Positions 18 to 2,743 of a DNA stretch of 10,884 nt are shown here, piece after piece. Numbering within the stretch: position 1 is the first letter of the stretch; each line of letters starts with the position of its first letter. This DNA is from a virus (taxonomy: Duplodnaviria > Heunggongvirae > Uroviricota > Caudoviricetes), in the IMG/VR virus record IMGVR_UViG_2695420485_000001. The stretch is one strand, 5' to 3'. Made by a program: the position numbers and the translations under genes. Below the pieces are notes generated by a model. It had not been told where the DNA came from. It searched no databases and saw only the letters and a list, made by a program, of their open reading frames with translations.

Positions 18-32
18 GCGCTTTGTCAGCGC
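18..32 (-). promoter_or_regulatory. nutL boxB-like hairpin (GCGCUGACAAAGCGC on the leftward pL transcript)
   Basis: Plus strand 18-32 gcgctttgtcagcgc; on the minus strand this gives a 5-bp stem GCGCU/AGCGC with loop GACAA, about 65-80 nt downstream of the pL start. Matches the P22-type boxB as I recall it, not the lambda GAAAA loop. No convincing boxA found by eye. Confidence 0.5.
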
Positions 33-100
33 CGTAGATTCATATTCGAATCGTTGTATATTCACCGCCCTGGTGAGTAGTGCGTCCTGCTGATGTGTTT

Positions 101-163
101 AGTATCACCGCCAGTGGTATTTATGTCAGCACCGCCAGAGATAATTTATCACCACAGATGGTT
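101..163 (-). promoter_or_regulatory. OL1-OL2-OL3 operators with leftward promoter pL
   Basis: Three 17-bp sites: tatcaccgccagtggta (103-119), cagcaccgccagagata (127-143), tatcaccacagatggtt (147-163). Minus strand reads CTGACA-17 nt-GATACT (-35 at 124-129, -10 at 101-106). Near-identical to lambda OL/pL from memory. Confidence 0.85.
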
Positions 164-310
164 ATCTGTATGTTTTTTATATAGATTTATTTTTTTGCAG
201 GGGTGTGTGGCTTGGGAGGTGATCGAGAGATCTGAATTGCGATGTTTAGTGAGTTGTATCTATTAATTTTCAAATAAATACAATTGGTTATGTGTTTTGG
301 GGCGAACGTG

Positions 311-345
311 AGGCAAAGAAAACCCGGCGCGGTGGCCGGGTTTAT
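311..345. terminator. Hairpin terminator closing the leftward immunity operon (tIMM position), possibly bidirectional
   Basis: Stem cccggc (323-328) / gccggg (335-340) with a 6-nt loop. On the minus strand it is followed by UUUUCUUUG, on the plus strand by tttatttatt. Lies immediately beyond the stop of the 216-aa minus-strand gene. Confidence 0.6.
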
Positions 346-996
346 TTATTGCTTAGGAGCTTGTTGTGATGACGATTGGTTAGTTGGAGCGCTCGTTAAT
401 GGTTGCTGTGTCGGTACCTGTATTATAATTGGAGCCGGGCTGGTTACTGATGGTGACTTGTCATTGCCGGAGATAATCCAACTTGAGGCTAACATCACGC
501 CAGACAGAATCACAGTAACTAAAGTCAAGCCAACGGCCATCGCCCACTGAGTCGTTGTAAGTCCCGTTTTCAAACCGCCGATTTCACCTTTAATTTCAGC
601 AATACCTCTCTCAATAGAAGAAAATTGCTGAGTATAATAGGTTTTAAAGTCAGCTGATTCGCGACGCATTTCCGCAGCAATAGACTCTACCTCTGATTTG
701 TTTTGTGAAAGCTTTGCGTCAAGTTCTTCTCTGGACATTCCGCTCACGCTTACCTCCAGGGTATCACTCTTCATCGCTACATCTTCCTTACTTGGGCGCA
801 AACCCGTTTCGTCCATGGCGTATGAAACTCTATTTGATACCTTAGCATCAATACCAATACTTTGGTACTGAGATGGATCCCCATAAGGAGAAACGGTTGT
901 CGCTGCTAGGGTTGCACTAACTATAATACTTGGAAGAACTGATGATGTTGTTCCTGAGGTAGGTTGAACTGAAGAAACTGGCTTCAGTCTTTCCAT
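346..996 (-). CDS. Hypothetical membrane-anchored protein, 216 aa: S/T-rich N-terminus, charged coiled-coil-like middle, one predicted TM helix (WAMAVGLTLVTVILSGVMLASSWII), S/P/T/Q-rich tail
   Basis: Long minus-strand ORF in the position of lambda rexB. Its ATG (996..994) overlaps the stop of the upstream 88-aa gene (ATGGAAAGACTGA), indicating translational coupling. AT-rich relative to cI. No family recognised. Confidence 0.75.
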   Translation of the reverse strand: MERLKPVSSVQPTSGTTSSVLPSIIVSATLAATTVSPYGDPSQYQSIGIDAKVSNRVSYAMDETGLRPSKEDVAMKSDTLEVSVSGMSREELDAKLSQNKSEVESIAAEMRRESADFKTYYTQQFSSIERGIAEIKGEIGGLKTGLTTTQWAMAVGLTLVTVILSGVMLASSWIISGNDKSPSVTSPAPIIIQVPTQQPLTSAPTNQSSSQQAPKQ

Positions 997-1250
997 AGCC
1001 CATTATCCCTGAGAGCTACCTGTAATGATTTTACTAATGCAACAGCTTGATCCGGGCTCATTGAGACTGACATGTTAGGGGTCAACTCAACTTTTACTTG
1101 GAAGCTATTCTTTCCTTGCTCATCAGACTGCATGTGATGCTCAAATTCATGGCGGTAAAAAGTAATGATTGTTTCAGCACGATCAGGCGTAATAAGAACT
1201 GATGTGGCGGTCATGTGCTGAGGTATGATTTTAATAGTGTTATCTGACAT
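984..1250 (-). CDS. Hypothetical soluble protein, 88 aa (MSDNTIKIIPQH...GLWKD), His/Glu-rich; the ORF extends to an ATG at 1391 (135 aa) but that start lacks a Shine-Dalgarno
   Basis: Minus-strand ORF. The internal ATG at 1250..1248 is preceded by AAAAAGGA 7-8 nt upstream; the 1391 ATG has no SD. Stop overlaps the start of the 216-aa gene. No homology recognised. Confidence 0.6.
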   Translation of the reverse strand: MSDNTIKIIPQHMTATSVLITPDRAETIITFYRHEFEHHMQSDEQGKNSFQVKVELTPNMSVSMSPDQAVALVKSLQVALRDNGLWKD

Positions 1251-1442
1251 AAGTATCCTTTTTGTTTCCTTAGTATTTTTTTGCATTGACATCAGAAATA
1301 GCGAATCCACAAGAGTATGAGTAAAGCTAATCAGTTTAGTGATACGGTGACTATTAAAGTGGTAAACCACATCAAAGCTCGCAGAGTGCATACCAGGCTG
1401 TCACACATGACAAAGTAACGAGGATGCCTGATCTCATAGCGC

Positions 1443-1598
1443 TCAAAGAGACATGCCGATAATGGCATTAACCACGCATGACGCCATAAACACGCCGCCA
1501 ACGATGAAGCTGGCTTGGTTCTTCCTGGTAGCGCCAAGAGTCAACAGAACCACTGAAAGGGCAAAAAAAGGTATCGCGATTATGCTGAACGTGTTCAT
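1443..1598 (-). CDS. Small hydrophobic protein, 51 aa, two predicted TM helices (MNTFSIIAIPFFALSVVLLTLGATRKNQASFIVGGVFMASCVVNAIIGMSL); not in the supplied ORF track
   Basis: Hand translation of the minus strand: ATG at 1598..1596 preceded by GAGGT with 5-nt spacing, TGA at 1445..1443. Sits between the cI stop and the 88-aa gene, same orientation as the leftward operon. Strongly hydrophobic composition. Confidence 0.45.
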   Translation of the reverse strand: MNTFSIIAIPFFALSVVLLTLGATRKNQASFIVGGVFMASCVVNAIIGMSL

Positions 1599-1675
1599 GT
1601 TGACCTCAACTTATTTCGATTCTCCATCACCCTTAATCCGCCGCCCCATGTGTTTGTTGTGATTCGTTGCTGGCC

Positions 1676-2389
1676 TTAACCAAACGTCTCTTCAGGCCAC
1701 TGGCTGGCGATAACTTTCCCCACAACGGAACAACTCTCATTGCATGGGATCATTGGGTACTGTGGGTTTAGTGGTTGTAAAAACACCTGACCGCTATCCC
1801 TGATCAGTTTCTTGAAGGTAAACTCATCACCCCCAAGTCTGGCTATGCAGAAATCACCTGGCTCAACAGCCTGCTCAGGGTCAACCAGAATTAACATCCC
1901 GTCAGGAAAACTAGGTTTGGATCCTGTTGGCGCGGTCATGGAATTACCTTCAACCTCAAGCCAGAATGCAGAATCACTGGCTTTTTTGGTTGTGCTTACC
2001 CATCTCTCCGCATCACCTTTGGTAAAGGTTCTAAGCTCAGGCGAGAACATCCCGGCCTGAACATGAGAAAAAACAGGGTACTCATACTCACTTCTAAGTG
2101 ACGGCTGCATACTAACCGCTTCATACATCTCGTAGATTTCTCTGGCGATTGAAGGGCTAAATTCTTCAACGCTAACGTTGAGAATTTTTGCAAGCAATGC
2201 GGCGTTATAAGCATTTAATGCATTGATGCCATTAAATAAAGCACCAACGCCTGACTGTCCCATCCCCATCTTGTCTGCGACAGATTCCTGGGATAAGCCA
2301 AGTTCATTTTTCTTTTTTTCATAAATAGCTTTAAGGCGACGTGCGTCCTCAAGCTGCTCTTGTGTTAATGGTTTCTTTTTTGCGCTCAT
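1676..2389 (-). CDS. cI: CI repressor, 237 aa (N-terminal HTH, C-terminal LexA-like S24 autopeptidase domain)
   Basis: Translation is near-identical to lambda cI as recalled ([51 protein letters not shown]...[12 protein letters not shown]). Divergent from cro across the OR operators. Confidence 0.97.
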
Positions 2390-2399
2390 ACGTTAAATC

Positions 2400-2465
2400 T
2401 ATCACCGCAAGGGATAAATATCTAACACCGTGCGTGTTGACTATTTTACCTCTAGCGGTGATAAT
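2400..2465. promoter_or_regulatory. OR3-OR2-OR1 operators with divergent promoters PRM (leftward) and PR (rightward)
   Basis: OR3 tatcaccgcaagggata (2400-2416), OR2 taacaccgtgcgtgttg (2423-2439), OR1 tacctctagcggtgata (2447-2463). PR: -35 TTGACT (2437-2442), 17-nt spacer, -10 GATAAT (2460-2465). Confidence 0.9.
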
Positions 2466-2489
2466 GGTTGCATGTACTAAGGAGGTTGT

Positions 2490-2690
2490 ATGGAACAACG
2501 CATAACCCTGAAAGATTATGCAATGCGCTTTGGGCAAACCAAGACAGCTAAAGATCTCGGTGTATATCAAAGCGCGATCAACAAGGCCATTCATGCAGGC
2601 CGAAATATTTTTTTAACTATAAACGCTGATGGAAGCGTTTATGCGGAAGAGGTAAAGCCCTTTCCAAGTAACAAAAAAACAACTGCATAA
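2490..2690 (+). CDS. cro: Cro repressor, 66 aa
   Basis: [38 protein letters not shown]..., near-identical to lambda Cro as recalled. GGAGG Shine-Dalgarno upstream. Confidence 0.95.
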
Positions 2691-2697
2691 GTAACAC

Positions 2698-2743
2698 CGC
2701 TATTTTCACAATGGACATTCGTCCTACGTCGCTGACAAAGCGA
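2698..2743 (+). promoter_or_regulatory. nutR: boxA-like CGCTATTTT (2698-2706) and boxB hairpin UCGCUGACAAAGCGA (2729-2743)
   Basis: Located just after the cro stop, as in lambda. boxB is a 5-bp stem with loop GACAA, the same loop as the nutL element at 18-32. Confidence 0.55.

Follow-up and report, generated by a model that had tools for sequence, protein, structure and literature searches.

An immunity module of lambda specificity within H-19B/HK97-type nut sites: the early regulatory region of a probable HK97-like lambdoid prophage

The closest described relatives of the DNA we analysed fall into two camps. The first is phage H-19B, whose N-nut antitermination system (found also in 933W) is the subject of Neely & Friedman (2000, Mol Microbiol 38:1074). 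The H-19B nutR has been described with two hairpins, and its nutR/tR1 segment, which differs by one mismatch from the sequence discussed here, supports N-dependent antitermination and read-through of tR1 (Muteeb et al. 2012, PMC3526286). The second camp comprises phages HK97, HK106 and mEp234. Their GenBank records, and the paper by Degnan et al. (2007, Mol Microbiol 64:232) in its title, credit them with immunity of lambda specificity. Entries EF120459-EF120461 hold the wild lambda-immunity phages HK106, mEp234 and CL707 (Degnan et al. 2007). HK97 (AF069529) has the order N - nutL - pL/OL - gp48 - gp49 - cI - OR - cro - nutR - cII, the same as ours.

Two further systems matter for comparison. 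Lambda has the same immunity module, places its sites at the same positions relative to pL and cro and follows the same boxA-spacer-boxB logic, with boxB elements GCCCUGAAGAAGGGC (nutL) and GCCCUGAAAAAGGGC (nutR), a GAAGA or GAAAA loop and an 8-nt spacer that has no hairpin. P22 has a GACAA pentaloop on a G+C-rich 5-bp stem, as here, and an NMR structure of its gene 24 protein bound to boxB exists (1A4T; Cai et al. 1998, cited in PMC12550061). In that complex the looped-out C contacts Arg11 and His7, and complexes of N peptides with boxB are described as NMR-only entries (PMC12550061).

The window, by which we mean the whole 10,884-nucleotide stretch of DNA, very probably includes the early control region of a lambdoid E. 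coli prophage resembling HK97, in which a lambda-specificity immunity module sits inside an H-19B/933W/HK97-type N-antitermination system. We put the probability of this reading at roughly 0.9. HK97 matches positions 1-3165 with 98.7% nucleotide identity and an E. coli prophage matches the region with 99.9%; among complete E. coli genomes the highest coverage of the window is 81%. Feature coordinates are collected in Table 1.

Table 1. Regulatory features and genes at the left end of the window.
Feature	Coordinates	Strand	Details
nutL boxB GCGCUGACAAAGCGC	18..32	-	5-bp stem, GACAA pentaloop; +63 to +77 of pL transcript
nutL spacer hairpin	37..52	-	GAUUC-gaauau-GAAUC; 4 nt (UACG) upstream of boxB; from fold
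Putative nutL boxA CGCACUACU	76..84	-	Per HK106 annotation; weak assignment
pL	94..129	-	-35 CTGACA 129-124; 17-nt spacer; -10 GATACT 106-101; +1 at 94
OL1, OL2, OL3	103..163		OL1 103-119 (= lambda); OL2 127-143 (A129G); OL3 147-163 (G154A)
Timm-like intrinsic terminator	318..345	-	End of immunity transcript; lambda-like segment 62-342 ends here
HK97 gp48 (346-996) and gp49 (984-1250) homologues	346..1250	-	Non-lambda cassette replacing rexA/rexB
cI repressor	1676..2389	-	235/237 aa identical to lambda CI; HTH_3 and Peptidase_S24 domains
OR3, OR2, OR1	2400..2463		OR3 2400-2416; OR2 2423-2439; OR1 2447-2463 (G2454A); overlap pRM and pR
cro	2490..2690	+	65/66 aa identical to lambda Cro; Pfam Cro 3e-35
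nutR boxA CGCUAUUUU	2698..2706	+	Lambda similarity ends here; HK97 has CGCUCUUUU
nutR spacer hairpin	2713..2724	+	GGAC-auuc-GUCC; 4 nt (UACG) upstream of boxB; from fold
nutR boxB UCGCUGACAAAGCGA	2729..2743	+	5-bp stem, GACAA pentaloop; identical to H-19B nutR
H-19B-type tR1 region (Rho-dependent terminator/rut)	2744..2828	+	By identity to H-19B nutR/tR1 template; pRE on minus strand
cII, H-19B type	2829..3125	+	94/98 aa to H-19B cII; 30/103 to lambda CII

A preliminary description had called cI, cro and all six operators essentially lambda, and so they are: the two proteins are near-identical to their lambda counterparts, and 99 of the 102 operator bases are those of lambda. OL1, OR2 and OR3 match lambda exactly, and OL2, OL3 and OR1 differ from it by a single base each. 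The change in OR1 is a common wild allele, the same G-to-A being present in HK97. From cI through OR to cro the alignment with lambda is free of gaps, and OL and OR are tripartite with lambda sequences and spacing. By its CI, its Cro and its operators, the module would be classed as imm-lambda.

Lambda similarity is confined to 62-342 and 1680-2704, resuming near 3120 with O and P. A 1.3-kb non-lambda insert, standing where lambda has rexAB, splits the lambda-like core in two. Its gp48 and gp49 homologues match phrog_5820 and phrog_26809 (unknown function) and gave no Pfam or PADLOC hit; HK106 and mEp234 have hicAB in the same rex position. On the right the non-lambda patch is about 415 bp long (2705 to about 3120), and beyond it lie lambda-like O, P, ren and ninB at 97% identity (298 of 299 residues for O and 229 of 233 for P). 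Here HK97 parts company with the window: right of cII its replication genes are P22-like, in place of lambda O and P.

The joints between lambda and non-lambda sequence lie close to the core, as the preliminary description had supposed. The left joint is the start of the pL transcript and the right joint is the cro stop/boxA region; breakpoints cluster at window positions 80-99 and 2670-2709. Similarity to lambda in the pL leader had been judged to end at about 60-75, and in our alignment the last recognisable similarity is at 62, or +33 of the transcript. Exchange may have taken place at short sequences common to many lambdoid phages, which on the left would be the first ~13-30 nt of the pL transcript (AUCAGCAGGACGC...) and on the right the cro stop/boxA region.

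Outside these joints lie the nut sites. An identical 13-mer, CGCTGACAAAGCG, has exactly two occurrences in the window, at 19-31 on the minus strand downstream of pL and at 2730-2742 on the plus strand downstream of cro, in each case on the strand that pL or pR transcribes. The full elements read GCGCTGACAAAGCGC (minus strand, 32 to 18) and TCGCTGACAAAGCGA (plus strand, 2729-2743). Both fold as a 5-bp stem capped by a GACAA pentaloop, in keeping with the earlier statement that neither has the lambda GAAAA loop; nor is either of the GCCCUGA(A/G)AAAGGGC type, with GAAAA or GAAGA loop, that marks lambda N/nut. They also lie where nut sites should, one in the pL leader and the other starting 39 nt past the cro stop codon, and the GenBank record of the sister phage HK106 (EF120461) marks putative boxA and boxB of nutL and nutR at exactly the homologous bases. 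Rfam holds no nut or boxB family, and a scan at gathering threshold gave hits only in other parts of the window, to isrK, C4 and tRNA.

Each nut site also has a second small hairpin, absent from the preliminary description. The layout of hairpin, UACG and boxB is kept in Salmonella, Enterobacter and VT2-Sakai relatives. Fully different spacer stems (GAUUC/GAAUC, GGAC/GUCC, GUCGA/UCGAC) lend comparative support to an RNA structure. Here each sequence was folded on its own in place of a formal count of covariation; a MAFFT alignment of ten nut sites did not bring the hairpins into register. In five loci the nutR stem has a variant, GGGC...GUCC, that preserves pairing through G-U. The spacer hairpin of H-19B goes by the name of 'reducer'.

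The boxA elements are less tidy. The nutL candidate, CGCACUACU, agrees with CGCUCUUUA at 6 of 9 positions, and at the same place lambda has CGCACUGAC, which is not lambda's boxA. With so poor a match, and no canonical boxA upstream of the nutL boxB, involvement of NusB and S10 at nutL is doubtful. Both boxA and NusB are reportedly dispensable for H-19B N. HK97 differs slightly from the window in these sites, with boxA CGCTCTTTT against our CGCTATTTT and one A fewer in the nutL spacer.

The H-19B nutL is identical to the window at 97 of 97 positions, and from nutR through cII there is one base mismatch. The H-19B sites share the two-hairpin layout, the second or "spacer" hairpin preceding boxB by 4 nt. 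H-19B differs in its repressor, cro and operators, which are its own, and it ceases to be identical to the window at the pL start on one side and at the final codons of cro on the other. The cII gene, already recognised as non-lambda, proves to be of the H-19B kind (Table 1). By their nut sequences and spacer hairpins these would be sites of the H-19B/933W/HK97-type N-nut system; for antitermination activity itself we draw on the H-19B literature.

Might the GACAA hairpins instead have arisen as inverted repeats by chance, or be remnants that play no part in antitermination? They are short, and their individual fold z-scores are modest (-1.0 to -3.8). Chance would, however, have had to put the same 13-mer twice on the correct strands at nut positions, a repeat that found no match in any of 200 dinucleotide-preserving shuffles. 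The sites are, moreover, identical to nut sites that have been used experimentally in H-19B, and they are inherited together with N and with each other in nearly every locus that could be scored (109 of 112 and 59 of 60, respectively). We rejected this alternative as highly improbable.

Those counts come from a survey of linkage, by which the N gene just left of the window can be predicted. It had been suspected not to be lambda N, and this is strongly supported. Across 112 loci (public IMG/VR viral contigs that carry this nutL and extend far enough), the H-19B/HK97-type N is intact in all but three, one with a truncation and two with deletions; about 3% of loci with this nutL have thus lost N, and lambda N, P22 gp24 or another N type was found in none of the 112. 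One 127-aa N is common to HK97, HK106, mEp234 and the prophage of E. coli TB354, the nearest relatives; its identity to the N proteins of H-19B and 933W is 97.6-98.4%, and it matches Pfam N_peptide (PF25694) at 1.7e-15. It begins MTRRTQFKGNSRSRRRER, where lambda-type N has MDAQTRRRERRAEKQ..., and a forced alignment with lambda N yields 27% identity. A GACAA nutR boxB lies 1.2-3.5 kb from this nutL in 59 of 60 loci, whatever immunity region intervenes; lambda cI is present in 40 of 94 loci with this nutL. Because N must recognise nutL and nutR alike, all three travel together despite the exchangeable immunity module that lies between them.

The GACAA loop had led the preliminary description to a P22-type boxB. 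As far as the loop and the nutL boxB go, this was right: the P22 nutL boxB, GCGCTGACAAAGCGC, is identical to ours at 15 of 15 positions, and the P22 nutR has a GACAA loop too. The resemblance extends to the arginine-rich motif (ARM) of the linked N, GNSRSRRRER compared with GNAKTRRHER in P22, both of the form GN-x-(K/R)-x-RR-x-ER. One could therefore imagine nut sites and an adjacent N that are genuinely P22-type (the gene 24 product), as in a lambda-immunity/P22 hybrid. But the likeness ends at boxB. P22 has a canonical boxA, CGCTCTTTA, an unstructured 11-nt spacer without a hairpin and unrelated flanks, whereas the nutR spacer here is 22 nt long and contains one. In BLASTP the linked N aligns with gp24 only over its C-terminal 33 residues (67% identical), its middle being unrelated, and cII has no BLASTP match to P22 C1. 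Thus, among the hallmarks of a P22 gene 24/nut system, the GACAA boxB is present, and full-length gp24 homology and a P22-like boxA and spacer are absent. Gp24 was found in none of 123 linked loci. A P22 origin is refuted for the relatives of this element, and for the element itself we hold it to be highly improbable; taken whole, the nut sites belong to the H-19B/HK97 type, and so do the linked N and cII. Neither the H-19B-type N nor P22 gp24 gave a match when its sequence was searched against the PDB.

How would such a system work in this prophage? The transcripts from pL and pR would each carry a NUT RNA made up of an optional boxA, the short spacer hairpin, a UACG linker and the GACAA boxB hairpin. 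An H-19B-type N, presumably encoded just left of the window, would, we infer, use its arginine-rich N-terminus, FKGNSRSRRRERLKAK, to bind boxB. If the complex of the P22 N peptide with boxB is a guide, the loop may adopt a GNRA-tetraloop-like fold in which the C is turned outwards onto basic residues. N and NusA would then turn RNA polymerase into a termination-resistant form that reads through tR1 and the tL terminators.

Across seven N proteins, which are not independent of one another, GACAA loops go with a basic residue at the equivalent of Arg11 of the P22 N peptide (PDB 1A4T) and GAAA tetraloops go with alanine. In the wider family of two-hairpin nut sites, insertion of a single C into the boxB loop (GAAA to GACAA), co-varying with replacement of alanine by a basic ARM residue, would be a minimal specificity switch.

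The one respect in which the window stands apart from its kin is OL. Over positions 1-3200 the nearest relative differs only at 129 and 154, both in OL. A129G, at position 3 of OL2, is also a T-to-C change in the pL -35 element, which is TTGACA in lambda and all relatives; G154A is a G-to-A change at OL3 position 8. Both are found in the window alone and not in HK97 or the wild lambda-immunity phages. A set of 236 E. coli genomes and about 53 viral contigs contained neither, and the exact 37-mer spanning the two had no match among the genome and viral contigs searched. The -35 change may lower N expression, so N-nut activity in this particular element is not assured.

Perhaps, then, we are looking at a decaying prophage whose N-nut system is intact in sequence and no longer used, the OL/pL changes reflecting decay or selection against leftward expression. 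That the sole differences from the nearest relative fall in OL, one of them in the pL -35 hexamer, and that both are so rare, would suit this, as would the condition of that relative: an IS100 has inserted into the TB354 prophage, its integrase has an internal stop, and its ral and antirepressor genes are frameshifted. Yet every ORF examined in window 1-8750 is intact, pL, at 9/12 with CTGACA and a 17-nt spacer, remains usable as a promoter, and two substitutions are too few for statistics. Disuse seems to us unlikely, if well short of far-fetched, and would bear on the activity of one copy, not on the nature of the feature. The private OL changes may be selected regulatory changes rather than drift, in which case together they could damp leftward expression (N, kil) or alter the OL-OR interaction. 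We offer this reading, and that of the GACAA loop with its ARM residue as a minimal specificity switch, tentatively, and would not bet on them.

Returning to the lambda module within its H-19B-type surroundings, the arrangement is already known: it had been sequenced, annotated and studied before, with H-19B, HK97 and the wild lambda-immunity phages as the documented cases. What this instance offers is a correct annotation rather than a discovery. It is lambdoid mosaicism of the clean, textbook kind, in which an immunity cassette changes hands at short conserved joints and N stays matched to its two RNA targets on either side.

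The window begins within a lambdoid prophage's leftward early operon, and the immunity genes it carries are close copies of those of lambda (reference J02459). CI is identical at 235 of 237 residues and Cro at 65 of 66, while farther to the right O and P match at 298/299 and 229/233. Three operators (OL1, OR2 and OR3) are identical to lambda, and OL2, OL3 and OR1 are each one base off. The lambda-like BLASTN segments, together with an alignment in which real similarity on the right side restarts only at about 3120, near the cII stop and the start of O, leave three non-lambda parts (Table). 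The preliminary description had placed the left joint at 60–75, and there it falls: lambda similarity ends at 62, position +33 in the pL transcript.

Table. Early-region features and lambda-like and non-lambda parts, in window coordinates
Feature	Position	Strand	Remark
nutL boxB	32–18	minus	GCGCTGACAAAGCGC
nutL second hairpin	37–52	minus	GAUUC-gaauau-GAAUC (fold)
pL transcript start	94	minus	
pL -10	106–101	minus	GATACT
pL -35	129–124	minus	
OL1–OL3	103–163		
Timm-like terminator	318–345	minus	
ORF	346–996	minus	HK97 gp48 homologue
ORF	984–1250	minus	HK97 gp49 homologue
ORF	1443–1598	minus	51 aa, unannotated
cI	1676–2389	minus	
OR3–OR1	2400–2463		overlapping pR
cro	2490–2690	plus	
nutR boxA	2698–2706	plus	
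nutR second hairpin	2713–2724	plus	GGAC-auuc-GUCC (fold)
nutR boxB	2729–2743	plus	TCGCTGACAAAGCGA
cII	2829–3125	plus	
O then P	from 3158	plus	
Lambda-like segment	62–342		lambda 35550–35826, 89%
Lambda-like segment	1680–2704		lambda 37231–38255, 97.7%
Lambda-like segment	3064–5556		lambda 38592–41084, 97.3%
Non-lambda part	1–61		nutL
Non-lambda part	343–1679		in place of rexAB
Non-lambda part	2705 to ~3120		nutR, tR1, cII

The two boxB elements are where the preliminary description had put them, by sequence and by folding, each with a stem of 5 bp and a GACAA loop. They share the 13-mer CGCTGACAAAGCG, which is found nowhere else in the window; one copy is on the strand transcribed from pL, the other on that transcribed from pR, and 200 shuffles gave no match at all. 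That the loop is of the P22 type is also right: the boxB of P22 nutL is the same as the nutL boxB here, and the P22 nutR loop is GACAA too. Outside boxB, however, these nut sites are unlike P22, where CGCTCTTTA is followed by an unstructured 11-nt spacer. Here a second hairpin folds in each site, 4 nt (UACG) upstream of boxB. The nutR boxA is canonical (CGCUAUUUU; HK97 equivalent CGCUCUUUU); in nutL we found no convincing canonical boxA, the annotated CGCACUACU belonging to a stretch that lambda also has, and in lambda it is no boxA.

The Shiga-toxin phage H-19B (AF034975) provides the likeness that P22 does not. Window and H-19B agree at 97 of 97 positions between window position 1 and the start of the pL transcript, and there is one mismatch in the stretch running from the last cro codons across nutR and tR1 into cII. 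The cII product, identical to lambda CII at 30 of 103 residues, agrees with H-19B cII at 94 of 98 and gave no BLASTP match to P22 C1. There is some variation within the type: the nutR boxA reads CGCTATTTT in the window, H-19B and 60 IMG/VR loci and CGCTCTTTT in HK97 and 34 loci, and in five loci the spacer stem GGAC has become GGGC, with pairing kept as G-U.

The window does not include the N gene itself. In HK97, HK106, mEp234 and the prophage of E. coli TB354 it encodes one and the same 127-aa protein, with a Pfam N_peptide match (1.7e-15) and 97.6% and 98.4% identity to N of H-19B and of 933W. Among 123 IMG/VR loci with the exact 37-nt nutL sequence, 112 reach at least 600 nt further, and 109 of these encode an N at least 95% identical to this protein; the gene is truncated by deletion in one and deleted in two, and neither lambda N nor P22 gp24 turned up in any of the 112. 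The three exceptions, prophage-like contigs (L018, L052 and L090), keep the H-19B-type nutL leader with N truncated or removed by deletions that begin at least about 95 nt past boxB. P22 gp24 aligns with the 127-aa protein only over the last 33 residues (67% identity), and the arginine-rich motifs are alike (GNSRSRRRERLK in the linked N, GNAKTRRHERRR in P22). The observation in the preliminary description is confirmed and its suspicion of a non-lambda N beside a lambda core is supported, with a correction as to type: judged from sequence, the antitermination system is that of H-19B and HK97, P22-like only in boxB and the arginine-rich motif.

The layout CAAC, hairpin, UACG, boxB also accompanies more distant N proteins: those of the Salmonella phages Oslo (87% identity) and g341c (75%), Enterobacter phage MII_001 (74%) and VT2-Sakai (57% in alignment). 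Their spacer stems differ completely (GAUUC/GAAUC, GGAC/GUCC, GUCGA/UCGAC), and all the nut sites fold as two hairpins. The window and H-19B have GACAA as the boxB loop, as does Oslo nutR; g341c, MII_001 and Sakai have a GAAA tetraloop instead, and the one C is all that separates Sakai nutR from the window's. Where the P22 N peptide has Arg11, N of the GACAA group has Lys and that of the GAAA group Ala; the C that is looped out in the P22 complex (1A4T) touches Arg11 and His7 (PMC12550061). These few, related sequences suggest that N may co-vary with the boxB loop.

Lambda immunity with these nut sites is already known and annotated. In HK97 (AF069529), 98.7% identical over window 1–3165, the genes follow the same order, with gp48 and gp49 in the place of rex, and left of nutL stands a gene whose annotation is N anti-termination protein. 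The HK106 record, EF120461, stems from the work of Degnan et al. (2007) on wild lambda-immunity phages. Its annotation runs through putative nutL boxB/boxA, pL, OL1–3, Timm, pRM, OR1–3, pR, nutR boxA/boxB, pRE and a CII site; the boxB features correspond exactly to 18–32 and 2729–2743, so the finding was already in public annotation.

The closest relative is the TB354 prophage, 99.9% identical over window 1–3200, where A129G and G154A, both in OL, are the only differences (six over 1–6900). A129G falls on position 3 of OL2 and makes the pL -35 hexamer CTGACA instead of TTGACA; G154A falls on position 8, in the consensus half of OL3. Both are absent from 236 complete E. coli genomes that have a lambda-type OL, where the best match (98.1%) has both mismatches, and from about 53 IMG/VR loci, unlike the G-to-A in OR1, which is the common wild allele. 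The two changes may be neutral, selected or errors. The TB354 prophage (L128, 873172–894430) adjoins tRNA-Thr downstream of proA and is degraded, with an internal stop in integrase, an IS100 insertion, and frameshifted ral and antirepressor genes. Its Q is lambda-type; the window has a different one (8749–9237; 162 aa, GTG start, phrog_943), and lambda similarity stops at 8751.

Between Timm and cI, the rexA/rexB place is filled by the gp48 and gp49 homologues (phrog_5820 and phrog_26809, of unknown function) and the 51-aa ORF, which has a weak Pfam match to the PspC TM region (E 0.007, below gathering score). For the ORFs in 343–1679, PADLOC gave no hit and Pfam none above threshold. In this place other lambda-immunity phages have hicAB or rexAB, which makes the interval a variable slot expressed from the prophage. 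Farther right, Rfam places c4-a1b1, isrK and C4 antisense RNA at 5759–5957, directly upstream of two antirepressor genes (6011–6688 and 6757–7485; a P22AR C-terminal domain protein and an Ant/KilAC-type protein). Together they resemble an antirepressor module under antisense control, of the P1 immI kind, inserted in the nin region at the lambda ninC–ninD place. After Q comes a tRNA cluster (9328–9561): Rfam gives three (9328–9399, 9408–9480 and 9487–9558), ARAGORN only Asn-GTT and Gly-TCC. Downstream, ORF 10255–10758 matches the PHROG 'tellurite resistance' family phrog_632 (6.7e-69) and is likely a moron gene.

What the nut sites enclose is itself exchanged. Lambda-like cI is present in 40 of the 94 loci with sufficient sequence upstream of nutL, so its combination with this nutL is common. 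Walking from nutL toward pL, similarity to the window is lost at 80–99, about the pL start, in 66 of 117 loci, and most of the remainder stay similar into OL. From nutR toward cro it is lost at 2670–2709 in 55 of 89 and at about 1680, the cI stop, in 28 more. Lambda, H-19B and P22 have AUCAGCAGGACGC in common at the pL transcript start, and lambda and H-19B the stretch from the cro stop to boxA. The nutR boxB UCGCUGACAAAGCGA lies 1.2–3.5 kb from this nutL in 59 of 60 loci, regardless of the intervening DNA. The immunity cassette can be exchanged, and across it N remains matched to both its nut targets.
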